This document shows, one piece after another, positions 5,311-22,528 of a DNA stretch of 62,931 nt. The translations under genes were made by a program, and so were the position numbers. Every line of letters begins with the position of its first letter. Position 1 is the stretch's first letter. Where the stretch lies: NCBI GenBank assembly GCA_965215885.1, contig CBDCEW010000012.1, forward strand, positions 1 through 62,931, written 5' to 3'. Below the pieces are notes generated by a model that worked only from the letters and a program-made list of their open reading frames with translations, was not told where the DNA came from and did no database searches. The DNA is from Candidatus Moanibacter sp. (GTDB taxonomy: Bacteria > Verrucomicrobiota > Verrucomicrobiia > Opitutales > UBA2987).

Positions 5311-8300
5311 TCAAAATAGCGTGAGTTGACGCGCGGGCGGAGGCGTTTTTCGGAAGGGTTTTTCGGTGTGACGCTCGATAAGGGCCTCTTTGATGGCTTT
5401 GAGAAATGGTGATGGCTTACGCTGCTGAGTGGATCCGCGCCATCGTCGTTTGCCAGCGTAGGATAGAAAAAGGCGGTTTCGCGCACGCGTCATACCGACA
5501 AAGAAGAGGCGTCGCTCCTCGGCAATTGACTCCGGCCCCGGATCCGGTTCCCAGTTCAGGGGAAGAAGGCCGTCTTCGCAACCGACGATAAATACTACAC
5601 TAAACTCAAGACCTTTGGATGCGTGCAACGTGAGGAGGGAGACGCGGTCGGCCCGAGGGTCCCAGAGGTCGATGTCGGCTCCGGTGGTAAGTTCATTGAG
5701 AAAGGACTCGGTGTCGTTTCCGAAATTCTCTGCTAATGGGCGGAGGGCACCGATAATCGCTTCGAGCGGCAGTGTGTTCAATTTGTCCTGAGACTCCTCT
5801 TGTCTCTCCTTTTCCCTCAGTGCGCGAGCGGCAATTTGCAGCCGTTCGATGAGGGGCCGCTGATTTGGTAACAAGCTTAACTCCAGGATGAATTTCTGGA
5901 CGTAGGGATGATCGATGAGACGGTCGTGGGAATGTTTCTGGAAGGGAATACCTGAATAGGCGAAGGCCTCACGGAGGAGATTGGATTGAGCGTCGGTACG
6001 GTAAAGAACCGCGAAATCGGAGAAGGCGAGAGGCCTACCGACATCTTCACGGACCCGACCGGTATCGAGGGCGTGGAAATCGACTCCGCCGATGAGACGC
6101 TCGATAGCGAGGACGACGTATTGGGCCTCGGTGCGTGCGGTAGAACACCGATGGATTTCAATTTTCATTGGGTCATCCATGAGGGCCTGGAGCTGTCGTT
6201 TCTCGACCAGGGTGGACGGCGCAATCATTTGAGTGGCGGCTTCGACAATGGTGCGGGTGGACCTGTAATTCCGAGTGAGTTGAACCGTGCGCGCTTCCGG
6301 GTAATCCTCCCTGAAGCGCTGAAAAAAGCGGACGTCGGCACCGCGGAACCGGTAGATCGCCTGATCCGGATCACCAATAACGCAAATGTTGCTTTGGGAA
6401 GGCGCGAGGAGCCTAATGAGATTGAATTGACCGGCATCGACGTCCTGGTACTCGTCGATCGAAATGTATGGGAAACGCTTGCGGTAAAGGGCGGAAAGAT
6501 CGGGTTGAGTCTTGAGGAGTTTGACGGAGAGTATGATGAGGTCGTCGAAGTCGACCCAACCTCTCTCGCGCATAGCGCGTTCGTAGGAATTGAATGCAGT
6601 CTGTGTATTTTCGTCGAGGGTTGTTATATTTTCTGCTCTCTTGAACTGCGAGAAGCTATTGAGTAGCCGCACCGCGTCCCGACGGTTGAGGGATAGCGTC
6701 TCCCTGACGATTTCGATCCGCTCATGCTCCGTCGCAATCCTGAGAGGAAGGGGGAGACCCAGACGATCCGGTTGTTCACGTAAGATGAGGAGTCCCAGGG
6801 AGTGGATTGTCATTACAGGGACTCGCTCACTTTGGATTGGGATGAGGCGATCGAGGCGGTTTCTCATCTCTTCGGCGGCGCGTTTTGTAAAGGTGAGGGC
6901 AAGGCAGCCTTCGGGCGGTACGTTTTGGTCAGTAATGAGGTAGGCGATGCGGTGGGTAAGGGTGCGGGTTTTTCCTGTTCCTGGTCCAGCGAGCACGAGG
7001 AGAGGGCCCTTTGTGATTTCCGCGGCGCCTTTTTGATCCGGATCAAGACCGTCAAGGATGCGATCCGATGTCGGGGCGAGGTCGACGGCGAATGGGAAAA
7101 GCAGTTCATTTTGCGGGGAGAGAATAGCCTCCTCCCGACTGGACTGGTAGGGACTCGGCGATTCCGCGACTTTTAATTCGGTGCCAGATTTCTCCTCATT
7201 GAGCGGTTCTGTCGACAATGTCCCACCCGGGACCGAATCCGCGGAATCCGGCAACTCAAAAAGGAGGCCGACAGTAGTGCCCCGATGAAGTTCGTCCTTT
7301 GTGAAGAGGCGAATCGTTCCATATTCTCCGTCGTAACCTGCTTCGGAGATAACCTGGCCCTCTCGCATTCTGGAAAGAGCCTCTGCCAGAAGAGGCGCAC
7401 CGTGTCGCTCTAACTCGTCGGTGGACGCCTGATTGAGAATGTGAAGCTCGGCACCAAATCTACCGAGAAGCGATTCGTACCTGGACTGGACGGTTTTGCT
7501 CTTTGGCCCAACGCCTTCAATTTCCGATATGATCTCAGATAGGGGGATGAGATTGTGGTAAGGCGAAGAATGTGGCGGAGGGGACTCCTTGTGATCTCGA
7601 TCGGCCAACTCCATGACGCGATGCATCACGCCGATGGTAAGCGGTTTGTGACAGACGGGACAGCGACCGTCGTGCCGTCGGGTTTCCTCGGGCGTGAGCC
7701 GCAGATGACAACCGCGATGACCGTCCATATGGTATTTACCTTCTTCGGGAAAGAATTCGACGGTGCCGCCGAATCCCTGGCGCGTTTCGAGGGCCTGCTT
7801 AATTGCGTGGTAACTCAGATCCGTTTCGAAGAGACACGCCTCGCGTCCGAGTTTTGAGGGTGAGTGGGCGTCGGAATTGGAAACGAGGGTAAAACCATCG
7901 AGGGCGGAGAGCATCCAGTTCATAGGGGGATCGGAGGAGAGTCCGGTCTCGAGGGCAAATATGTGTGGCGACAGATCACCATAACATTCCCGAATGGCGT
8001 CGAAACCCGATTTCGAACCAAAAACGGAAAACCAGGGCGTCCAGATGTGCGCCGGAATGAGGTAACAGCCTTTGCCGGCCTCAAGGGTGATCTCGAGAAG
8101 ATGGCGGGAGTCCAGGCCGAGAATGGGGCGCCCGTCCGAAGCGATATTTCCGATGCGAGCGAGACTCTCAGTAAGTCGATCCGCACTCTCGAGGTCGGGG
8201 GCGTAGATAAGGTGGTGAACTTTGCGGACTTTGTCATCCTTCTTATAGATAGTGGAGATCTCAACTTCCAGGAGGAAGCGGGCAGGTTCTTCTCCGGGAG

Positions 8301-8544
8301 CGCCCCAGCGGCTTTCCAACTCTCGCTCGAGATCCTCCCGCAGTCGAAAGAGGCCGGGCTCAGCAGGGACGAGCTTTTCTTTGATCTCGGCCATCCAGCC
8401 CGGATGTGTGAAGTCGCCGGTTCCAATGACGGTCAGCCCTTTTTTGCGGGCCCAGAAGGCGAGATGCTCGAGATCGAGGTCGCGGCTTGTAGCGCGTGAG
8501 AACCTGGAGTGTAAATGAAGATCGGCGTAGAATCGTTGGGCCAT
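5311..8544 (-). CDS. Endonuclease Q (PHP)-UvrD/PcrA helicase fusion
   Basis: N-term ADLHLHSRFS, GTGDFTHP, SNSDAHS, GKYH and CPVC Zn motif; C-term AGPGTGKT, DEYQD, GDPDQAIY, TLHASKGLEF, EERRLFFVGMTRA. Confidence 0.92.
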   Translation of the reverse strand: MAQRFYADLHLHSRFSRATSRDLDLEHLAFWARKKGLTVIGTGDFTHPGWMAEIKEKLVPAEPGLFRLREDLERELESRWGAPGEEPARFLLEVEISTIYKKDDKVRKVHHLIYAPDLESADRLTESLARIGNIASDGRPILGLDSRHLLEITLEAGKGCYLIPAHIWTPWFSVFGSKSGFDAIRECYGDLSPHIFALETGLSSDPPMNWMLSALDGFTLVSNSDAHSPSKLGREACLFETDLSYHAIKQALETRQGFGGTVEFFPEEGKYHMDGHRGCHLRLTPEETRRHDGRCPVCHKPLTIGVMHRVMELADRDHKESPPPHSSPYHNLIPLSEIISEIEGVGPKSKTVQSRYESLLGRFGAELHILNQASTDELERHGAPLLAEALSRMREGQVISEAGYDGEYGTIRLFTKDELHRGTTVGLLFELPDSADSVPGGTLSTEPLNEEKSGTELKVAESPSPYQSSREEAILSPQNELLFPFAVDLAPTSDRILDGLDPDQKGAAEITKGPLLVLAGPGTGKTRTLTHRIAYLITDQNVPPEGCLALTFTKRAAEEMRNRLDRLIPIQSERVPVMTIHSLGLLILREQPDRLGLPLPLRIATEHERIEIVRETLSLNRRDAVRLLNSFSQFKRAENITTLDENTQTAFNSYERAMRERGWVDFDDLIILSVKLLKTQPDLSALYRKRFPYISIDEYQDVDAGQFNLIRLLAPSQSNICVIGDPDQAIYRFRGADVRFFQRFREDYPEARTVQLTRNYRSTRTIVEAATQMIAPSTLVEKRQLQALMDDPMKIEIHRCSTARTEAQYVVLAIERLIGGVDFHALDTGRVREDVGRPLAFSDFAVLYRTDAQSNLLREAFAYSGIPFQKHSHDRLIDHPYVQKFILELSLLPNQRPLIERLQIAARALREKERQEESQDKLNTLPLEAIIGALRPLAENFGNDTESFLNELTTGADIDLWDPRADRVSLLTLHASKGLEFSVVFIVGCEDGLLPLNWEPDPGPESIAEERRLFFVGMTRARNRLFLSYAGKRRWRGSTQQRKPSPFLKAIKEALIERHTEKPFRKTPPPARQLTLF

Positions 8545-10100: not shown

Positions 10101-10451
10101 TCAATAATCCGCGGTCGCTTCCGGTCCCAGGTCGACGGCAAATGCGAGGGCGTCGTCATACCCAGAATCCGCGAGGAGTTCTGTAACGAGGGGCGCGGCC
10201 TCCGACCAACGTTCGTTGCCGTTCATGCAACCGTGAATGCTACTCGGATACATGCCGGTCAGGAAGCTGGCCCGACTCGGCGTGCAGATCGGGCTTTGAC
10301 AATAGGCTTGGGTAAAGGCAACCCCTTCAGCGACAAGGCGATCGAGATTGGGAGTCCTGATATTCGGATTTCCCAGAGATTGAATAGTATCGTAGCGCTG
10401 CTGATCGGTGCAGATCCAGAGGATGTTTGGGCGTTGTTTCACAATGCTCAT
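10101..10451 (-). pseudogene. Sulfatase N-terminal fragment
   Basis: [26 protein letters not shown]; stops after about 100 aa. Confidence 0.85.
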
Positions 10452-10465
10452 TATTCCCTGTCGAT

Positions 10466-10556
10466 TTTTACGAGCGCACGCGGGATGCATTTGCCGTGGT
10501 GATGACAGGCGATACCGCAAAGTACGGCAATATCCTTCTGAAGAAGGGATCACCCT
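10466..10556 (+). repeat. Diverged duplicate of fucU 3' end
   Basis: Near-identical to 9195-9287. Confidence 0.92.
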
Positions 10557-10563
10557 TGGTTAA

Positions 10564-10646
10564 TGCCCAGGGGGGGACTCGAACCCCCACGCCTCGCGGC
10601 ACATGAACCTGAATCATGCGTGTCTACCAAATTCCACCACCTGGGC
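10564..10646 (-). tRNA. tRNA-Leu (anticodon CAG)
   Basis: Reverse complement GCCCAGGTGGTGGAATTTGGTAGACACG-CATGA-TTCAGGT-TCATG, long variable arm, GGTTCGAGTCC, ends CTGGGCA; CCA not encoded. Confidence 0.95.
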
Positions 10647-10983
10647 GAGCGAGGGAGGAAGATTGTGGAGGAGAGGACGAGGTGCAAGGATAGAAAGTCA
10701 GAGGACAGAGATCAGAAGTCAGAAGTTGGAGTGGAAGGAATCAGTTTTCAGTGGACCCCGGCAAGCCGGGACTTCGTTCCGCAGTGCGGGATTCGGAGGA
10801 TGTATGAAAGGGGAGAAAGGCGCAACGAATGAATGGAGGGCAACGAATGGGGGGATTGGAACAGAAGGAGTGGAAGGTGAAAGTGTGAGTAGGCTTACGG
10901 CGAAGATTCTTTCTCCCGAAACCTGATGACCGACACCTGAAACCGATAGCCTCGTATCAACTTTTGATCCGGACAGGACAGGA

Positions 10984-11280
10984 TCAGGAGTCCTTCTGCG
11001 GGGTGAGATATTTTCGGATGTCGGGGATCGGTTTGCGGCGGGGGCCATCGGAGTAGGTGGCCAGATAGGGATCGGTGTGTGGTGTGCCGATTTCGTCCTC
11101 CTCGTCGGGCAGGTCTCCCTGGATGACGATATTTCCGAATGTATCTACCGGCGAGGATGCATTTTCGAGATCATCGAAGAAGAGAGAGAGTCGGCGTGTC
11201 TCGGGGTAAAGCACCTGTTCCGGTTTTGGCACTTTTCCCTTTTTGACGAATTCAAAGGGACAGGGGTAACGATGTTTTTT
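10984..11280 (-). pseudogene. C-terminal fragment of an unknown gene abutting the ISL3 end
   Basis: Open frame KKHRYPCPFEFVKKGKVPKPEQ...PQKDS starts right at the IS boundary without a clear start codon. Confidence 0.4.
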
Positions 11281-11281
11281 A

Positions 11282-12764
11282 GCCTCGTCAGCAGAATCTG
11301 TGGGTTATTTCGGGTTCAGGCAAGTCGCCCATGGTATGAAATAGGGCGATCTTAAGCACTTCGAAGCTCTTAAAGCCGTATGCTTTTCTGATAGTGAGAT
11401 TTATATTGCGGTTAAAGCCCTCCACAATGCCGCAGGAAAAGGCCTTTTTGGCCCGAAACCAGTTGAGGATGAGCGGCTCGTGTTTGCGCACCGAGCGCAC
11501 GAACCTTTTGATCGGTTTGAGGCGCGAACGCATGGCGCGCGTGCACCATTTTTTCAGATACCATTGGGCCCAGTAGGGACTTTTATAATGCCACAAGAGC
11601 TGAAAGCTCTCCTTTAGTAGATAGGCCCGCACGCTCTTCAGATCGTATTGGAGCACCTCCTTGAGGCGGATCTGTTGGGTGGGGGTGAGATTTTGCGGAT
11701 TTTTCAAGAAACAGTATTTGCTTTTGACCAGCACGTTGATGTAGCCGTCCCGTTGCAATCGCCTGGCTTCCGCAGCACGAATCTCATTGAGGGCCTTGTT
11801 CAGGTTGGCTACCAAGTGGAAGCGATCGAGGATGTGCAGCGCCTGGGGTGCCTTTTTCTTGATCACTTTGAGGTAAGGCTTCCACAGATCCGAGCAGACG
11901 TAGAGGATCTGGCTGCTCTTTTGCGCTCCCAATTCCCAGAAAAAACGCAAGAGCGATTTTACGTTGCGCTTATTGAATACGCCCAATAGCCGCCGCCGCC
12001 CCTCGTCAAGCTGGTAGACCACGGTGAGATAGTGATGGCCTCGATGATACTGCACCTCATCGACTCCGATCGCCTCAATCCCGCTCATATCGCGCCGTTT
12101 GAGCCCCCAACGCACCATCGCCTCGACCGACTCGAAGACGTTGCGCCAGTTCGTGCGAAAAACCCTTGCCGTCTCTTCCCAGCTCAAGCGCCTCGCCCAC
12201 TGGGCCAGAAACCATTGCATTGGCCAACTCAGATGACTCTTGCCCTTGGCCCAGGGCACCTCTTCGACCTTCACCCCGCACCGCCGGCAATTGACCCGCC
12301 GCATGCGGTAACGAAAATACACCTTCATCCCCCACAAGGGCACAAATTCAAAATGCCTCGCCTCGCTCATGTGGTCGTAGCCGCTGGCCGTCCGGCCACA
12401 CCCCGAACAGCACACCCGACTATTCTTGCGCGGCTCAATCTGCACCACAATCGCCTCCTCCGATTTCACCATTTCCATACTCGCCTTTGCGTAAACAAAG
12501 CTCTTGAGCCAATAGCACCGATTCAGTAGCGTTTTGATGAGCACTGGGTCCTCCGTGTTCAGGATGTATTTTCGGTACTACTTTCATCCTCGGAACGGCC
12601 CGGTGCTTCAACCTTTCAATCCCATATGCAAAGAAAACACCGACCAGCCCCTCCGGCTGTGGAGGAGCGGGATTCAGGGCAGCGCCCTGACTTCTCCTTG
12701 TGCTCACCGACTCTATTTCCTCTTGTAAGCGACGTTACCCACCCACAGATTCTGCTGTAGACCC
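11282..12764 (-). mobile_element. ISL3-family insertion sequence
   Basis: 24-bp TIRs gcctcgtcagcagaatctgtgggt / gggtctacagcagaatctgtgggt (20/24 match); no target duplication in the flanks. Confidence 0.9.
11288..12544 (-). CDS. ISL3 transposase
   Basis: CSGCG and CRRCG zinc finger, IGVDE, SDLWKPY, LDRFH, VEGFN..RKAYGF. Confidence 0.95.
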   Translation of the reverse strand: MLIKTLLNRCYWLKSFVYAKASMEMVKSEEAIVVQIEPRKNSRVCCSGCGRTASGYDHMSEARHFEFVPLWGMKVYFRYRMRRVNCRRCGVKVEEVPWAKGKSHLSWPMQWFLAQWARRLSWEETARVFRTNWRNVFESVEAMVRWGLKRRDMSGIEAIGVDEVQYHRGHHYLTVVYQLDEGRRRLLGVFNKRNVKSLLRFFWELGAQKSSQILYVCSDLWKPYLKVIKKKAPQALHILDRFHLVANLNKALNEIRAAEARRLQRDGYINVLVKSKYCFLKNPQNLTPTQQIRLKEVLQYDLKSVRAYLLKESFQLLWHYKSPYWAQWYLKKWCTRAMRSRLKPIKRFVRSVRKHEPLILNWFRAKKAFSCGIVEGFNRNINLTIRKAYGFKSFEVLKIALFHTMGDLPEPEITHRFC

Positions 12765-12845: not shown

Positions 12846-13637
12846 ATGCGAAAGAGTGTGATAAAGGCAAAGCTCGCTCAGGGCGAGGCATCCCTTGCGG
12901 TTCAACTGCATTTTACGGATCCTTCCGTCTTCGAACTGACGAGCCTGATGGGTTTCGACGGGATCTGGATGGATATGGAACACCATACTTACAGCCTCGA
13001 AACGGCGGCGAATCTCATGCGGGCGGCCCGGGTAGGGCGCTCAGACATAATTGCCAGACCCGCGAAGGGGGAGTTTATGCGCATGGGGCGAATGTTGGAA
13101 GCGGGCGCACAGGGCATCATGTACCCCCGCTGCGACAATGCTGAGGAGGCTGGCGAAGTCGTGAGGTGGGCGAAATTTGCGCCGTTGGGCCAGCGTGGAT
13201 TTGATAGCGGTAATCCCGACAATCCCTACTGTACGATGCCGTTTGAAGAGTACATCCGAGCTGCCAACGATGAGACATTTCTTATCATCCAGCTCGAGGA
13301 ACAGAGTGCGATTGATCGGGCCGAGGAAATCGCGGGCGTGGAAGGGGTCGATATGATTATGCTCGGTCCAGCGGACTTCTCCGTCTTGAGTGGCGTCGCG
13401 GGACAGTTTGACCATCCCGTTGTGCAGAAGGCGATCGAAAAGATAGCGTCGGCCGCGAGAAACACCGGGAAAAACTGGGCGATGCCAACGTTTTCACTTG
13501 AGCATGCGCAATCCGTTTTCGATCAGGGCGCACGCCTCCTTTTCTATAGCGCCGATATCGTGATGGTTAAGAATGCGCTGGAGAATATGCGGAGTGATTT
13601 CGGGAAGATGGGTTTTTGTTTTGGCGACGACTCCTGA
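12846..13637 (+). CDS. HpcH/HpaI aldolase family protein
   Basis: GFDGIWMDMEH, GAQGIMYP, QLE, GVDMIMLGPADFS. Confidence 0.9.
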   Translation: MRKSVIKAKLAQGEASLAVQLHFTDPSVFELTSLMGFDGIWMDMEHHTYSLETAANLMRAARVGRSDIIARPAKGEFMRMGRMLEAGAQGIMYPRCDNAEEAGEVVRWAKFAPLGQRGFDSGNPDNPYCTMPFEEYIRAANDETFLIIQLEEQSAIDRAEEIAGVEGVDMIMLGPADFSVLSGVAGQFDHPVVQKAIEKIASAARNTGKNWAMPTFSLEHAQSVFDQGARLLFYSADIVMVKNALENMRSDFGKMGFCFGDDS

Positions 13638-13883
13638 TTCGAACAGGAGGAAACCCCTTCGACGGTGCTCAGGGCAGGTGAGAGAATTGAACAGAAGAAA
13701 ACGAAGAGAAACGAAGAGGAATAGAAGAAAGAGTAACGCCACGGATCCAACTAAATTGGTTACCGCTCTGCTGCTCGGCAGAGCGATTAGGAAGCTGTCG
13801 GTGCTCGAATCGGCTGCAGTTTACCTTCGCTTCCAGATAGAGGATGATTACCGCGAATTCAGAAGGCTAATATCGACAGATTC

Positions 13884-15608
13884 CTAGGATGCCTTCAGTT
13901 CATCGAGCCCTCCGATGAAGTGCAGCTTCATCTCGTCGGTGTTGTCGAATTCTCCGTCGAGGATTGCACCGACGGCGGATACCGTGTCTTTGATGCTGAC
14001 GAACCGGCCCGGCTGGCCTGTGAAAGGTTCGGTGCAACGATAGGGGTGGGTGAGGAATCGCTGAAGCCTTCGGGCGCGCTGCACGAGAGTCTTCTCTTCC
14101 TCTGAAAGTTCACGCAATCGTCTTTTCAAAAACTCCCGGTATCGGTTTGCCGCCGCTCGATGCGCGCGATTGGCCAGCAACCGTAACCATTCCGGATCGA
14201 GCATGAGATCGCGTGCCTCCATGAGAACTCGGCGTGCGTCAAGTGCTGTTGCATAGTGCGTCTCGCCAACAATCTCAGGATGTAGAAGGGAAGACCGGCT
14301 TTCAGCGAAACATACTGCCGGCCAGAATCCCTGGTTCCCCTGCTCCACGGTGAAATGAATGACGGCGGGCCAGGTCTCCAGGTTCCTATCGGCAAAACCG
14401 GGCTCAAAGGCCTCCTGCGAGAGAAAGTATACCGCCTGAACTTTTCCCGGTCGTGGGAGGTAGTAGTGGTCGATTCTCTCCCTTGCGTCCCTTGCAATGG
14501 CGCTGCGATAATTGTGAAACAGATCGCGTTCGTAGAGCTGCTGAAACGCAAAGAGCGTGACTTCGGCGCCGGCTTCGGTTAAACGCCGGTGCAACTCCTC
14601 CATGTTAATTAGCTTCCCGGTTCCCATGGGAGCAACGAGTCCCACATTACCGGCCTTGGGAAGAGGGCAGAAGAGATCGATCGGCTTGATTCCAGTTTCG
14701 CAGAACTCGACCTTCTCCGGCTTTTTCACTCCGAGACGACGGACTGCATCCGTCTTCGCATCCTCAGGAATATTGTGCACTTCCACGTTTACTAGGACCA
14801 GTTTACCGTCTTCAATTTCTGCATCGAAAGAATCGACCCGAACGGCTCGAATCATACCTTCGGGTAAGCGTTGCAGGACAACGGCCAGTCCCCGGTCGCG
14901 TCCCTTGCCGTCTTCGATACGAAAGGCATCGAGGCAATCTGGATGGGCGTCATGAGAAAATCGGGCTTCGATGATCGCCCCATAGCTTCGTTCAATCACT
15001 CCTTCGAGATGCGTTTCCTGGACATCAGTGGAATTTGCGGTGTGCGGGTTATCTTTCATTTTTTCTATTCTTGCTTTCAGGTTCAGCCTCGCTTTGTGGA
15101 GGCGATTCTTGACTGTGCTGAGTGGTACCCCTATGAGGGAAGCGACCTGCCTCTGCGATTGATGCCGCAGGTGGAAGAGGTCGATTACTTCCCGCAATTC
15201 CTTGGGCAAAGATTCCAATGCCTTCTGAAGCAGAGCAGAACGTTCGTTTCGAACGTATATCTCGGCCGGCGAGTCAATCGCGTCGATTATCGACTCCTCA
15301 CCGTCCGTCCAGGCGAAGGCTACAAGACGCTTTCGACGGATGATGCGTAGACATCGCCTTCGAACGATCTCGCGCAGCCATCCCCGGAAGGACTTGGGAT
15401 CCTTGAGATCCTCGAGGCTTGTATAAGCGATCAGAAATGCTTCCTGGATCGCGTCTCTTCCCGCTTGCTCGTCACCCAGAATGGCGGTGGCGTAGGTGAG
15501 GACACTCTTCTCAATAGTCTGCACGAGAGAGGCAAAAGCCTCATCACTTCCCGATACTGCCTCATTTACCCTGAGGGCAAGTTCATCTCTGTCCAATTGC
15601 GAACTCAT
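13884..15608 (-). CDS. ECF sigma-70 factor fused to F1-ATPase beta-like domain
   Basis: aa 1-183 has sigma regions 2 and 4 (DAIQEAFL, FRGWL, LPKELRE, VPLSTVKNRLHKAR). The rest has ETGIKPIDL, APMGTGK, GFWPAV, PEIVGETHY, ELSEEEKTLVQRARRLQRFLTHP, FTGQPGRFVSIKDT, ILDGEFD. Confidence 0.88.
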   Translation of the reverse strand: MSSQLDRDELALRVNEAVSGSDEAFASLVQTIEKSVLTYATAILGDEQAGRDAIQEAFLIAYTSLEDLKDPKSFRGWLREIVRRRCLRIIRRKRLVAFAWTDGEESIIDAIDSPAEIYVRNERSALLQKALESLPKELREVIDLFHLRHQSQRQVASLIGVPLSTVKNRLHKARLNLKARIEKMKDNPHTANSTDVQETHLEGVIERSYGAIIEARFSHDAHPDCLDAFRIEDGKGRDRGLAVVLQRLPEGMIRAVRVDSFDAEIEDGKLVLVNVEVHNIPEDAKTDAVRRLGVKKPEKVEFCETGIKPIDLFCPLPKAGNVGLVAPMGTGKLINMEELHRRLTEAGAEVTLFAFQQLYERDLFHNYRSAIARDARERIDHYYLPRPGKVQAVYFLSQEAFEPGFADRNLETWPAVIHFTVEQGNQGFWPAVCFAESRSSLLHPEIVGETHYATALDARRVLMEARDLMLDPEWLRLLANRAHRAAANRYREFLKRRLRELSEEEKTLVQRARRLQRFLTHPYRCTEPFTGQPGRFVSIKDTVSAVGAILDGEFDNTDEMKLHFIGGLDELKAS

Positions 15609-15758
15609 TCAATTATTAGTGTCACCGAGACGAATGAAAGTTTACGGAAATCCATTCAAGCAGTATGCCCAAATATTCGGCGGGAAGAAAATTGATCTTC
15701 TCCGGCGATTGGATTGTCTACGATGTACAATCGATTCTTTGTATACTTCACTGGCCTC

Positions 15759-15850
15759 TAGTCCGCTTTTTTCACAGATTTTCGAGGACGTAAATTTGGT
15801 AAGATGCGTTTCCCACCGTGTCGCTGCACATTCACCTCGGTAGACGGGCA
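15759..15850. mobile_element. ~92-bp MITE-like element (inverted copy at 31732-31824)
   Basis: tagtccgcttttt..tcgaggacg..aagat.cgtttcc..cgtgtcgc; related ends also at 4799 and ~49266. Confidence 0.7.
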
Positions 15851-15852
15851 AT

Positions 15853-17022
15853 CTAACCCGATCCGGAAATCAACTCATTCTGCCACAGGCGCTCGAGAAA
15901 GACCTGCCATGGCAGGATATCCACTCCGTCTTCTGTCCGTCGAGGCCTGGGATCCATAGAGACGACAAGATAATGGCGCGCCGTGTATTCCTCCTTGAAC
16001 GCCCGGATTCCCTTCAAGTGCCGCTGGCTGACGTTGCTAGTGGACTTGGCCTCGACGACCACTTCGGCGTCACCTAACACGAAGTCGACTTCAAGTCCTG
16101 AGGCCGTCCTCCAATATGAGAGAGGATAGAAGCACCCCGAGTAACTGGAGTGCGCTAAAATCTCCATGTAGAGCAGGTGCTCAAACGCTTTGCCGAAAAG
16201 TTCCGAACCCGGCTCAATCTCCCCTCGTCGGGTGAGATGTGCGACAATGCCAATGTCAAAGAAATAGAACTTTGGCGCGCCGATCAACCGTCTCTTGATA
16301 CGCTTCCTAAAGGCACGCAGGAACCTACCGATCATGGTGTCCTCCAGGATGTGGAAATACTCCTTCACGGTAGGTGCGCTCACTCCACACTCCGAAGCAA
16401 TATTATTGTACTTAACGAGTTCGCCGTTGGTCAAAGCCGCCACTTCCAGAAATCGACTGAATGCTGGAATGTTGCGGCTTAGTGCTTCGGCGGCGATCTC
16501 CTCCTTGAGATAGTCTCCGACATACGAGTGGATGAGTCGGCGGGGCGAGGTGCTCTGGTAATGACGCGGCAAAAGACCCGCATTCAGGGCTTTCGCGATC
16601 GAAAAATCACCGATTTCCGGATACACCAGCGGATGCAATTCGTAGCGTACCGCCCGTCCGCCCAGAAGGTTACTCTTACCGCGCTTGAGCTTGCGGGCGC
16701 TCGAACCGCAAAGGACGAAACGCAAGCCCCAATTCTCGATAAGCCAATGCACTTCGTCGAGCAGGGGCGGAATCTTCTGAATTTCGTCGATTATAATCGG
16801 AGATGTCTGCGAATCACCGTCAAGCCCTTCCGCCCGGCACTCCTCTCTAATCAGACCAGGATTCCGCACCAGCTTGGCATACATGCTCGAAAGTAACAGA
16901 TCGTAACGCTTGCTCTGAGGAAAAAGCGCCTTCAGCAGCGTGCTCTTGCCTGTCTGCCGCGGTCCCCAGAGAAAGCACGTCTCAGTACAAATCATATCTA
17001 AATCTAATATTCGATTATACAT
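15853..17022 (-). CDS. AAA_14 ATPase with DUF4143 C-terminal domain
   Basis: GPRQTGKS, IIIDEIQK, GSSARKL, PKFYFFDIG, YWRT..EVDFV..EAK. Confidence 0.92.
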   Translation of the reverse strand: MYNRILDLDMICTETCFLWGPRQTGKSTLLKALFPQSKRYDLLLSSMYAKLVRNPGLIREECRAEGLDGDSQTSPIIIDEIQKIPPLLDEVHWLIENWGLRFVLCGSSARKLKRGKSNLLGGRAVRYELHPLVYPEIGDFSIAKALNAGLLPRHYQSTSPRRLIHSYVGDYLKEEIAAEALSRNIPAFSRFLEVAALTNGELVKYNNIASECGVSAPTVKEYFHILEDTMIGRFLRAFRKRIKRRLIGAPKFYFFDIGIVAHLTRRGEIEPGSELFGKAFEHLLYMEILAHSSYSGCFYPLSYWRTASGLEVDFVLGDAEVVVEAKSTSNVSQRHLKGIRAFKEEYTARHYLVVSMDPRPRRTEDGVDILPWQVFLERLWQNELISGSG

Positions 17023-19896: not shown

Positions 19897-20074
19897 GGAT
19901 GTCGCAACCGTGTTTCGCGAATTGGGCGAGATGTATGCGTTTCTTCGAAAGCTGCAGAAAGCGCGCATTGCCGGTGAAACCGACGAGGCCTACGAAAAAC
20001 GGCAACGCCGTATTGTCGAGGAGGCCATTTACCATTCCTACCCCAAAGGCCAACGCCCTTTCGAAGTCTCCTAA
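19886..20074 (+). CDS. Small protein overlapping the nucleotidyltransferase (possible partner)
   Basis: aggaggtg RBS about 8 nt upstream; overlaps the preceding stop. Confidence 0.5.
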   Translation: MRTKDVATVFRELGEMYAFLRKLQKARIAGETDEAYEKRQRRIVEEAIYHSYPKGQRPFEVS

Positions 20075-21042
20075 CCGCAACAGTAAAGGCTTTTAGCGGG
20101 AATGCTTTCGGAGATAGTCTGGAAATTCTTTGAAATATCCGGACTATACAAACCCGCGTGCTCGAGGGCCTGCTGGATGGCGGTCTTTTGTGCTGCGTTC
20201 GATTCCTGCATGGGAGGTCTCGGTTTTCCGGCCGGGCGCCCCTGCAATTCCATCGCCGTCTTGACGTTGGCGGGAAGATTGGTGTCGTCGATTGCGTTCC
20301 AAAGGGGGAGAAGTTTTTCGTGTAGCGCCCGCCCGTTGGTGTGGTCGCCCTCTTGAACGGCGTTCCACAACTCTACATAGAGCGTGGGAGCGGCCGTAAG
20401 GCAGGCCGCGATCGATGCATCAGCCCCTAGGGAGAAGGCCGAGTAGAGGAGGGCGTCCGTGGCCGCCGCGACGATCCCTTTGCCCCGCAACATGAGGAAG
20501 AGGTCGGCCATCAGCTTGAGATCGCCGGCGCTTTGCTTGACCCCGATTACTCCGTCAACTTCGGTGATGATTTTGGTCAGTTGCGCGGGAGAGAGATAGG
20601 TCCATGGGACCACGTTGTAGATGATCACGGGAAGGCCTGTCTTGTCCGCAATTGTAGCAAAGTGGCGCTGCATGGCGGCATCATCGGGGCGAAACAGGTA
20701 GTGCACCGGAGTGACCTGGAGTGCCGCGACACCGAGATCGCGGACGGCTAAGCCGCGGTCCACAACGGCTTTTGTGCTGTTGGCAATAATTCCGGTGATC
20801 ACCGGCACGCGTCCTTTTGCTTCCTCCACCGCCCAAGCCGTTACGTTTCGAGTCTCTTCGGTACTCACCGAATGGCCTTCTCCCGTGCTGCCGGTGACGG
20901 CGAGACCATGGACGCCGGCATCGTCGATCAGGTAGCGGACATCAGCGCGAAATGCCTCCTCTATAATATTGTCCTCATCGTCAAAGGGCGTCGTCATGGG
21001 AGGGATGATCCCTCGGATCTGATTGGCGGTTTCTTCTTTCAT
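20071..21042 (-). CDS. Dihydrodipicolinate synthase (DapA)-family aldolase
   Basis: TPF, GSTGEG, IIYNV, IGVKQS. Confidence 0.9.
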   Translation of the reverse strand: MKEETANQIRGIIPPMTTPFDDEDNIIEEAFRADVRYLIDDAGVHGLAVTGSTGEGHSVSTEETRNVTAWAVEEAKGRVPVITGIIANSTKAVVDRGLAVRDLGVAALQVTPVHYLFRPDDAAMQRHFATIADKTGLPVIIYNVVPWTYLSPAQLTKIITEVDGVIGVKQSAGDLKLMADLFLMLRGKGIVAAATDALLYSAFSLGADASIAACLTAAPTLYVELWNAVQEGDHTNGRALHEKLLPLWNAIDDTNLPANVKTAMELQGRPAGKPRPPMQESNAAQKTAIQQALEHAGLYSPDISKNFQTISESIPAKSLYCCG

Positions 21043-21138
21043 GGAACTCAAATTTGATCCTGGACTTTTATCTTCGTTTACGGGGTTACAGTCAATTCGA
21101 TCCGTACTTCGATACAAACGAAATGTAATAGTTTAAGA

Positions 21139-21471
21139 TACTGCCCGCAGGCAGGTTTCGATGTCGCGCAGACTCTCCCGGTAGGTCAACTCGGCAAAAC
21201 CCATGCAGAGAAATTGTTCGAAGCAACTGAACTTTTGAACTTTGTAGTCGCCTCCGTAGCGTTGGACGCAACGATGGAACTGATGGCGCGGAAGATAATC
21301 TATGATTTGAGAAAAAACGAATCGACCTGTATACATGATTTGGACCCTCGAAATTTTTGAGAGTCCACAAGGCTTTTTGCAATTTGAGTCGAAAACAGCA
21401 GAAATCATATGTAAAATGTTGGTTATCAATCGATTAACCTGCGTTCCTAGAAAAACAACCGGACAGTAGTG
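21139..21471 (-). mobile_element. IS4 left-end fragment (333 bp)
   Basis: Near-identical to 51079-51412, including the TIR aaccggacagtagtg. Confidence 0.92.
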
Positions 21472-22528
21472 ATATCCGGACTATATCAAACCCGCGTGCT
21501 CGAGGGCCTGCTGGATGGCGGTCTTTTGTGCTGCGTTCGATTCCTGCATGGGAGGTCTCGGTTTTCCGGCCGGGCGCCCCTGCAATTCCATCGCCGTCTT
21601 GACGTTGGCGGGAAGATTGGTGTCGTCGATTGCGTTCCAAAGGGGGAGAAGTTTTTCGTGTAGCGCCCGCCCGTTGGTGTGGTCGCCCTCTTGAACGGCG
21701 TTCCACAACTCTACATAGAGCGTGGGAGCGGCCGTAAGGCAGGCCGCGATCGATGCATCAGCCCCTAGGGAGAAGGCCGAGTAGAGGAGGGCGTCCGTGG
21801 CCGCCGCGACGATCCCTTTGCCCCGCAGACATGAGGAAGAGGTGGCCATCGCTTGAGATCGCCGGCGCTTTGCATTGACCCCGATTACTCCGTCAACTTC
21901 GGTGATGATTTTGGTCAGTTTGCGCGGGAGAGAGATAGGTCCATGGGACCACGTTGTAGATGATCACGGGAAGGCCTGTCTTGTCCGCAATTCCCAGCTC
22001 AAGTGGCGCTCGCATGGCGGCATCATCGGGGCGAAACAGGTAGTGCACCGGAGTGCACCTGGAGTGCCGCGACACCGAGATCGCGGACGGCTAAGCCGCG
22101 GTCCACAACGGCACTTTTGTGCTGTTCGCAATAATTCCGGTGATACCGGCACGCGTCCTTTTGCTTCCTCCACAGCCCAAGCCGTTACGTTTCGAGTCTC
22201 TTCGGTACTCACCGAATGGCCTTCTCCCGTGCATTGACGCCTTTGCGTAGACCATGGAAGCCGGCCAATAGCGTCGATCAGGTAGCGGAAGCGCTGAAAT
22301 GCCTCCGTGATGTATTTTCGGTACTACTTTCATCCTCGGAAAGGCCCGGTGCGTCATGGGAGGGATCAATCCCATATGCAAAGAAAATCCGATTGGCGGT
22401 TTCTTCTTTCATGGAACTCAAATTTGAGGGCAGGCCCTGACTTCTCCTTGTGCTCACGGGGTTACAGTCTAATTCGATCTTGTAAGCTTCGATACCCACC
22501 CACGAATCTAATGAAGATCCTTAAGATA
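21472..22528 (-). pseudogene. Garbled second copy of the dapA-like gene interleaved with ISL3-end sequence (probable consensus artefact)
   Basis: Copy of 20135-21140 with increasing indels; 22230-22520 contains blocks of 12480-12764. Confidence 0.8.

Follow-up and report, generated by a model that had tools for sequence, protein, structure and literature searches.

Why should a sigma factor carry part of an ATP synthase? The question is raised by a gene of Candidatus Moanibacter sp. (GenBank assembly GCA_965215885.1) located on contig CBDCEW010000012.1, of which positions 1 to 62,931 of the forward strand were analysed; this 62,931-nt stretch is referred to as the window, and all coordinates of the gene and its surroundings are positions in it. 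The gene occupies 13884..15608 on the minus strand (574 codons plus stop), as do the parts of it described below, and is intact, coding for a protein of 574 amino acids (aa) with zero internal stops. An initial annotation, made from the sequence alone, had described the product as an extracytoplasmic function (ECF) sigma factor fused to a stripped-down F1-ATPase beta subunit, and had suggested that the beta-like domain may bind ATP or ADP without hydrolysis or dock on F1 subunits. Our analysis leads us to propose, with moderate confidence and by analogy with other ECF sigma factors, that this pseudo-F1-beta module could be a non-catalytic built-in regulator of its own ECF sigma core.

The claim that the single 574-aa open reading frame (ORF) includes an intact ECF sigma factor was borne out by profile searches. 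Sigma region 2 (aa 28–94, 15327..15527) matched Pfam PF04542 with 43.2 bits (cut-off 24, E 3.4e-11), and region 4.2 with its helix-turn-helix (aa 126–177, 15078..15233) matched PF08281 with 42.4 bits (cut-off 25.7, E 5.4e-11), while a protein profile scan with the NCBIfam sigma70-ECF model TIGR02937 gave 97.5 bits against a cut-off of 42.9. Pfam matches to Sigma70_r3 or Sigma70_r1 (region 3 and region 1.1) were absent from the 574-aa protein at E<=1. Judged by these profiles, aa 1–186 is a canonical ECF (group 4) sigma core. In the AlphaFold2 (AF2) model described below, region 2 has a predicted local distance difference test score (pLDDT) of about 93–96, and a short disordered linker (aa 96–112) lies between sigma2 and sigma4. 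The extension after sigma4 spans aa 187–574, i.e., more than 50 aa, and begins with a flexible linker of 13 residues (aa 187–199, 15012..15050, pLDDT <50) that forms the fusion junction between sigma4 and the beta-like module. No hydrophobic segment was found in the 574-aa protein, the top 19-residue Kyte–Doolittle mean being 0.98.

The relationship of the extension to F1 beta was evident from a phmmer search of PDB sequences, in which the leading matches were all beta subunits and the E. coli beta subunit was matched with an E-value of 2.3e-36. Three blocks were aligned, query 203–263 with E. coli beta 3–61, 300–354 with 123–177, and 376–570 with 279–451. The last two blocks flank beta residues 178–278, so that a stretch of about 21 residues stands in place of the roughly 100 that carry the GERTRE segment and Walker B in beta, in agreement with the initial annotation, which had found both motifs unrecognisable and the domain shorter than AtpD. 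Neither the GERTRE segment nor the Walker B strand was seen when the query was aligned with E. coli beta, the genome's own AtpD, or metagenomic AtpDs; the BLASTP alignment with the genome's own AtpD showed 31% identity in two blocks with an equivalent gap between them. The NCBIfam atpD profile TIGR01039 was matched in four separate stretches with E 9.5e-40, but with only 136.7 bits against a cut-off of 462.85, and both phmmer and NCBIfam placed the best match at query 498–572, corresponding to atpD 382–456. AtpD requires both the Lys and the Thr of Walker A (GGAGVGKT), whereas the P-loop of the query has the Lys only.

The extension can be divided into three domains. The N-terminal beta-barrel ('crown') domain (aa 200–295, 14724..15011) includes the first phmmer block and the AF2 strands at 202–272. 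The remnant nucleotide-binding domain (aa 296–440, 14289..14723), delimited by sequence alignments to AtpD, contains ETGIKPIDL (304–312), the degenerate P-loop APMGTGKL (326–333, 14610..14633), in which Leu takes the place of the Walker A Thr while the Lys is retained, and GFWPAV (427–432); the segment bridging the deletion lies between these motifs (aa 354–389, 14442..14549) and has a pLDDT below 50 at 370–379. The C-terminal helical domain (aa 441–574, 13887..14288, pLDDT 95–98) contains PEIVGETHY (444–452), ELSEEE (500–505), and ARRLQRFLTHP..FTGQPG..ILDGEFD (512–555), with the RARRLQRFLTHPY..EPFTG motif. All AtpD-colinear motifs listed in the initial annotation are present where it had placed them.

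A structural model was built with AF2 on a 42-sequence family alignment and reached a mean pLDDT of 86.9 and a predicted template modelling score of 0.66, the low-confidence stretches being aa 96–112, 187–199, and 370–379. The top Foldseek matches were all F1 beta chains (E ~1e-20, probability 1.00). VIA-align superposed model residues 201–574 on residues 2–465 of chain 4xd7_D with a Z score of 23.5, 285 aligned residues, and 29% identity; the root-mean-square deviation of ~11 Å reflects differing domain angles. In the model, the three-domain F1-beta fold of aa 200–574 holds, and the lack of AtpD-fold similarity that would have spoken against the annotation was not what was found. The beta-like module is nevertheless predicted to be unable to hydrolyse ATP, i.e., to be a 'dead enzyme', because its AtpD score is below the cut-off, the GERTRE/Walker B segment is gone, and the Walker A Thr is kept in only 5 of the 93 relatives with the same architecture. 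A predicted complex of the sigma core (aa 1–190) with the module (aa 200–574) scored 0.23 and 0.08, under a mark of 0.32, in a prediction made with no controls, and speaks neither for nor against binding of the two.

That the two halves are joined in nature is supported by contigs from public sequencing runs mapped onto window positions 13700–15900. One contig of run X1, which may be the source sample, covers this whole stretch with 0 differences, a 1172-nt contig of run X3 from a second study covers 14447–15618 with 2 differences, and a contig of run X5 from a third study covers 14994–15183 with 0 differences. The sigma/beta junction (15012–15060) is bridged by contigs of all three runs and hence of three studies. 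Run X10, a metatranscriptome library, provided a 159-nt contig covering 15028–15186 that likewise crosses the fusion linker, although a contig from an RNA library is no proof of transcription. The ratio of nonsynonymous to synonymous substitution rates (dN/dS), a check proposed with the initial annotation, was 0.10 over 321 codons relative to the copy in a related genome, G006 (dN 0.12; dS 1.18, which is near saturation), and the beta-like part is under purifying selection. The GC content of the gene equals that of its flanks, so recent transfer is not indicated. Among the five members of the query's clade, the remnant nucleotide domain (aa 296–440) is the most conserved part, with 81–91% identity to the query, compared with 40–81% for the sigma core, 47–68% for the barrel, 57–71% for the C-terminal domain, and 0–8% for the linker. 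Within aa 337–394, a stretch including the deletion-bridging segment, 51 of 58 positions are invariant among the five. Such hyper-conservation is the signature of a functional surface rather than of a relic.

A word-indexed search revealed full-length relatives with 80% (P0002) and 55–58% (P0003–P0005) identity, as well as distant fused forms (P0008–P0010) with about 30% identity. An exhaustive HMMER search of 1.84 billion representatives yielded 155 cluster representatives at E<=1e-30, the best 150 of which were classified by local phmmer searches with three parts of the query; 130 comprise sigma and the nucleotide/C-terminal module, 14 consist of the beta-like part only, and six are sigma-side fragments. 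The uncharacterised homologues that the initial annotation had thought might exist in databases are therefore numerous, and the outcome it had considered fatal, a fusion seen in no other genome with no reads spanning the junction near 15060, is the opposite of what was found, since the fusion is widespread and contigs span the junction. The fused forms fall into 93 barrel-type proteins, with about 100–135 residues between sigma and the ETGIK motif, as in the query, and 37 ankyrin-type proteins, with at least 185 residues in this interval. A Pfam scan of 24 members found ankyrin repeats in place of the barrel in all 14 ankyrin-type proteins among them. In the ESM Atlas, a 139-member cluster with sigma Pfam domains, auto-named 'ATP synthase beta chain family protein', is commonest in the phylum Thermomicrobiota, and ankyrin-type clusters of 67 and 56 members are commonest in Chloroflexota. 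In the source databases, family members bear one of two names, 'ECF sigma factor' or 'ATP synthase beta subunit'. Altogether, the family is large and old, and it has two architectures.

Sigma-less forms were also found. Seven such proteins are 366–394 aa long and start just ahead of the barrel. Of these, two that are named 'F0F1-type ATP synthase beta subunit' at the source come from contigs 343 kb and 60 kb long, and two group as sister taxa in the phylogenetic tree; the long contigs and the sister placement indicate that some sigma-less forms are probably genuine stand-alone genes, not gene-calling fragments. In the phylum to which the window belongs the fusion is rare, as no close fusion was found in any of the 400 other sampled genomes at E<=1e-60, with three candidates scored per genome, so that some members may have been overlooked. 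Only one of 40 relatives, G006, has a close copy (L018:7316-8462), which has lost aa ~77–251 and with them a complete sigma part; the remaining 334-aa sigma-less ORF is 79% identical to the query, and its length is common to three further cluster members. It adjoins an HpcH-aldolase gene equivalent to that next to the query, with a Mu-type transposase alongside. Scans of genome contigs with a single protein and with a five-sequence alignment revealed no confirmed relative, and a scan of metagenome contigs was swamped by true AtpD, four of 80 retained loci (L019–L022) being family members. A long open frame in a relative (L003) proved to be ordinary AtpD and was rejected as a family member.

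In the tree, true AtpDs form a single clade with a Shimodaira–Hasegawa-like approximate likelihood ratio test (SH-aLRT) support of 99, and all fused forms lie outside it. The fused proteins group with beta and not with alpha, which forms a long outgroup branch; in the alpha-rooted tree the fused forms are unresolved at the base, where long-branch effects call for caution. A single origin of the fused forms would not be contradicted by these sequence data. G006 also encodes other composite ECF sigma factors, two of which are fused to ankyrin repeats alone (L016:1481-3673, minus strand, and L017:4426-6660, plus strand; 730 and 744 aa) and one to a 3-keto-disaccharide-hydrolase domain (L017:1754-2953, minus strand; 399 aa). 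The sigma cores of these three proteins are the best sigma-only matches of the query among the relatives, with 34–37% identity.

A joint alignment revealed a graded loss, from complete true beta through the partial ankyrin-type to the barrel-type, which lacks the whole ~100-residue stretch. Ankyrin-type proteins keep strands 4–6, a degenerate GERTRE (e.g., QERTYR or EDGAYT), and a Walker-B-like VLLxVD, after which ~30–40 residues are missing. A helical insertion of ~20–26 aa ahead of ELSEEE (aa 472–497, 14118..14195), recognised in the alignments, is missing from true beta and present in some barrel-type members only. At the Walker A Thr position, 88 of the 93 barrel-type proteins have lost the Thr and mostly have L, M, I, V, or A. 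The Walker A Lys position is occupied by K in 45, R in 30, and another residue or a gap in 18 of the barrel-type proteins, and by K in 11, R in 6, and another residue or a gap in 20 of the 37 ankyrin-type ones; the Lys is kept in all five members of the query's clade. Other positions are near-invariant in the barrel-type, namely G306 (90/93), K308 (92/93), D311 (91/93), and P315 (91/93) of ETGIK.IDL..P and G331 (90/93) of the retained glycine-rich loop G-x-x-G-x-G. The Arg of RARK is present in 76 of 93 barrel-type proteins, and for this Arg and the ETGIK.IDL..P positions the figures are comparable in the ankyrin-type and sigma-less classes. The acidic turn is only moderately conserved, with E at position 503 in 14 of 42 sequences.

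According to published work on yeast F1 (PMC5608556), Tyr345 and Phe424 of yeast beta sandwich the adenine and P346 and F418 line its pocket, while Glu189, Arg190, Asp256, Arg260, and Thr164 belong to the phosphate, Mg, and catalytic side. In barrel-type proteins, the equivalent of Tyr345 is aromatic in 84 of 93, the Pro346 equivalent is kept in 86, the Phe418 equivalent is F in 72, and the Thr425 equivalent is T in 72, again with comparable figures in the other two classes. Since adenine-pocket equivalents are kept and phosphate, Mg, and catalytic residues are lost, the adenine half of the site has been retained and the catalytic half discarded.

The protein could thus be viewed as a soluble, cytoplasmic one-component ECF sigma factor consisting of a sigma2–sigma4 core, a flexible linker, and an ATPase-dead regulatory module derived from F1 beta. 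The module would hold or release the sigma2/sigma4 arrangement needed for RNA polymerase binding, as the C-terminal extensions of other ECF groups may do. In F1 beta, the cleft between the nucleotide and C-terminal lobes closes on nucleotide like a hinge. The switch site of the family could be the corresponding cleft, where the remnant nucleotide domain meets the C-terminal helical domain, with its adenine-pocket aromatics and the open/closed hinge of beta; this mechanism is favoured because these two domains are what both architectures share. Either an adenine-containing ligand or a protein partner could bind in the cleft, and a ligand- or partner-dependent change in it would be relayed to sigma4 via the barrel or the ankyrin repeats. 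As ligand, an adenine-containing compound is the first candidate to suggest itself, and that it is an adenine nucleotide is a real but minor possibility. The regulatory reading draws on the fact that ECF groups with fused extensions typically have no anti-sigma factor, and none is recognisable here. In the ECF classification (PMC7826278), groups with C-terminal extensions are described as typically lacking anti-sigma factors, and the extensions are thought to contact the core.

Several points weigh against such a built-in regulator. Regulation, ligand binding, and contact between the two halves are all inferred. Sigma-less forms make up 14 of the 150 representatives, so the beta-like module may have a role of its own. 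The 'adenine pocket' residues lie in a hydrophobic junction of two domains and could be kept for folding alone. The variability of the Walker A Lys makes a common triphosphate-binding mode doubtful, and this variability and the lost Mg site argue against the standard Mg-ATP mode. The stretch aa 337–394, hyper-conserved in the clade, varies across the wider family, and the functional surface may therefore differ between clades. Finally, the gene context offers no hint of a signal or regulon.

A stricter version of the same idea is an energy or nucleotide sensor in which the pseudo-beta binds ATP or ADP without hydrolysis and its hinge gates the sigma factor by adenylate status. Isolated beta monomers do bind nucleotide and close, the equivalents of Tyr345, Pro346, Phe418, Phe424, and Thr425 are conserved in all three family forms, and the glycine-rich loop and, in the query's clade, the Lys are kept. 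However, 88 of 93 barrel-type proteins have lost the Thr that serves as Mg ligand, the segment with the catalytic Glu and Arg and Walker B is missing, the Lys position holds a gap or a residue other than K or R in 18 of 93 barrel-type and 20 of 37 ankyrin-type proteins, and there is no alpha partner to contribute an arginine finger. We give this sensor a limited chance of being correct. The binding of nucleotide without hydrolysis that the initial annotation had envisaged is thus only partly backed: it fits the conserved adenine-pocket positions, but is undermined by a Lys position with K or R in only 75 of 93 and 17 of 37 proteins, a Thr in 5 of 93, and missing Mg and catalytic residues. It seems rather doubtful that the pseudo-beta has kept both the adenine pocket and a nucleotide-driven hinge without catalysis, so that the sigma factor would read the adenylate pool and switch initiation with energy state.

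The pseudo-beta could instead bind free alpha, gamma, or epsilon, or slot into F1, and so report the assembly or state of the ATP synthase. This would suit the C-terminal domain with its DELSEED-like acidic turn, which is the part most like true beta, and the genome has a normal F1. Yet in 37 of 130 fused members ankyrin repeats stand in for the crown barrel, the domain that keeps the alpha3beta3 ring assembled, about 100 nucleotide-domain residues and with them much of the subunit interface are deleted, an atp gene is found in none of five neighbourhoods, and the acidic turn is only moderately conserved. Because the barrel is dispensable and the interface largely deleted, docking on F1, the second suggestion of the initial annotation, is distinctly unlikely. 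The pseudo-beta might also be an autoinhibitory appendage that just blocks or tethers sigma until a protease cuts it off, or else an inert domain or a scaffold that brings the holoenzyme to another partner, with ligand sensing playing no part; the disordered, unconserved linker at aa 187–199 is a plausible cleavage site, and the sigma-less proteins indicate that the module can stand alone. An inert domain, however, would neither surpass the rest of the protein in conservation nor keep specific beta motifs for so long, and no linked protease gene was found in the neighbourhood, which leaves this explanation unlikely. An assembly chimera or a decaying pseudogene might be suspected from the insertion sequence element and gene fragments nearby and from the copy in G006 that lacks the sigma part. 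It is refuted, and would be highly improbable in any case, given the junction bridged in three studies, the fusion in 130 of 150 representatives, the dN/dS of 0.10, and the intact ORF.

ECF sigma factors with fused extensions can be called the 'one-component systems' among sigma factors, and to our knowledge few types of extension (SnoaL-like, TPR, and Cys-rich) have been studied. A description of the present family was not found in the ECF literature searched by full text, and neither was a characterised example, of which the initial annotation had known none. The main text of the ECF classification 2.0 (PMC7826278) does not contain 'ATP synthase', 'ATPase', or 'ankyrin'; the covered part of its supplement, outside of which later ECF groups possibly fall, lists SnoaL, TPR, zinc-finger/transmembrane, Cys-rich, DUF1835, and unknown short types of extensions, none of them F1-beta-like. 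Groups with regulatory C-terminal extensions reported in that work include ECF41 and ECF56 (SnoaL-like), ECF42 (TPR), and ECF238 (Cys-rich) (PMC7826278). The query resembles them in having a minimal sigma2–sigma4 core, a cytoplasmic domain of more than 50 aa after sigma4 as the presumed regulator, and no adjacent anti-sigma gene, but its extension of ~375 aa is derived from F1-ATPase beta, and the effect on sigma is presumed by analogy. Within this known kind of ECF sigma factor, whose regulators are fused at the C-terminus, the extension of the present family constitutes a new type.

Compared with AtpD (TIGR01039), the query shares the three-domain fold and the motifs ETGIK.IDL, [WY]PA.DP, RAR+.Q.FL.QPF..AE.FTG, and G.YD, but scores below the cut-off, lacks the Walker A Thr and GERTRE/Walker B, carries the 20–26 aa insertion, is fused to sigma, and lies outside the atp operon. 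F1 alpha is likewise a member of this fold in which catalysis has been given up and the nucleotide pocket kept; unlike the query, alpha keeps GxxxxGKT (GDRSTGKT in the genome's own AtpA) and a full nucleotide domain, and works inside F1. The beta subunit of the Mycoplasma gliding-motor G1-ATPase (MMOB1670 family, PDB 9io5_A) is another F1-beta homologue recruited beyond ATP synthesis and has an extra N-terminal region; the query matched 9io5_A with E 9.3e-18 and NF045858 with E 7.3e-25. However, the Mycoplasma protein hydrolyses ATP as part of an F1-like ring, and its extra region is not a sigma factor.

The family illustrates clearly how a subunit of a core bioenergetic enzyme can become a signalling domain of the pseudo-enzyme kind, and the graded loss series shows which parts of beta the new job needs. 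If the cleft does bind adenine nucleotides, a path leading from energy state to transcription could be tested directly, and a sigma factor reading adenylates would connect bioenergetics with promoter choice through a single protein, in well over a hundred bacterial lineages.

The gene is preceded on the same strand by an AAA_14/DUF4143 ATPase gene (15853-17022) and followed by a convergent HpcH-family aldolase gene (12846-13637); an ISL3 transposase, a sulfatase fragment, and a MazF-type toxin are located further out. As the initial annotation had noted, no atp operon or anti-sigma gene is adjacent: no atp genes were found within ~8 kb on either side, and Pfam revealed no recognisable anti-sigma domain in 16 neighbouring ORFs, small or unrecognised anti-sigma proteins being possible. 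Genuine atpD (802 bits) and atpA are located on another contig, C85, and a second F1-like match in the genome was identified as ordinary FliI. Five neighbourhoods were compared, those in the window, in G006, and in three metagenomic contexts from L019–L022, and neither an atp nor an anti-sigma gene was found in any of them. The three metagenomic contexts share nothing with one another or with the window; another ECF gene is near in two, and a HAMP-HD protein is encoded upstream in one. In L019:7998-11023, the family member and a beta-lactamase-family (PF00144) gene overlap at the stop codon of the former and the start of the latter, which suggests co-transcription, a pairing not seen in the other contexts.

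A candidate ECF-type promoter, GGAAAC-N17-CGTC (15787..15813, minus strand), is located ~180 nt upstream of the ATG; it was spotted by eye and has little statistical weight. The pattern has three matches in the window versus 0.84 expected by shuffles, and 57 matches in the genome versus 36 for a reversed-pattern control. No sigma-70-type promoter was found, and two terminator-like sites were not above shuffles. The upstream regions in the window and G006 are unalignable, so a promoter footprint could not be drawn. Twelve sites in the genome (contigs C20, C48, C66, C67, C72, C75, and C86) have the form GGAAAC-TTYGTCGCGAGCTTYGT-CGTC with a near-identical spacer; these sites probably represent the motif recognised in the regulon of a different ECF sigma factor, or else belong to a gene cassette that occurs repeatedly.

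Some other features of the window were recorded. Just downstream of the gene, ~50 nt with the inverted repeat CGCTCTG...CAGAGCG (13763-13814) are matched with 2–5 differences by many unrelated contigs of X1 and X3, and look like a dispersed short repeat or terminator-like element. At 10101-12544, the 150-aa sulfatase fragment (profile positions 1–95 of 301) adjoins the ISL3-family transposase gene, and the sulfatase gene was probably broken by insertion. A 1077-aa UvrD-type helicase is encoded at 5311-8544 on the minus strand, with the helicase domains starting from residue 500 and no Pfam match in the N-terminal 500 residues. At 20071-21849 on the minus strand, a full DHDPS-family gene (348 aa) precedes a 122-aa fragment that matches profile positions 186–288 of this family and is a partial duplicate or remnant.

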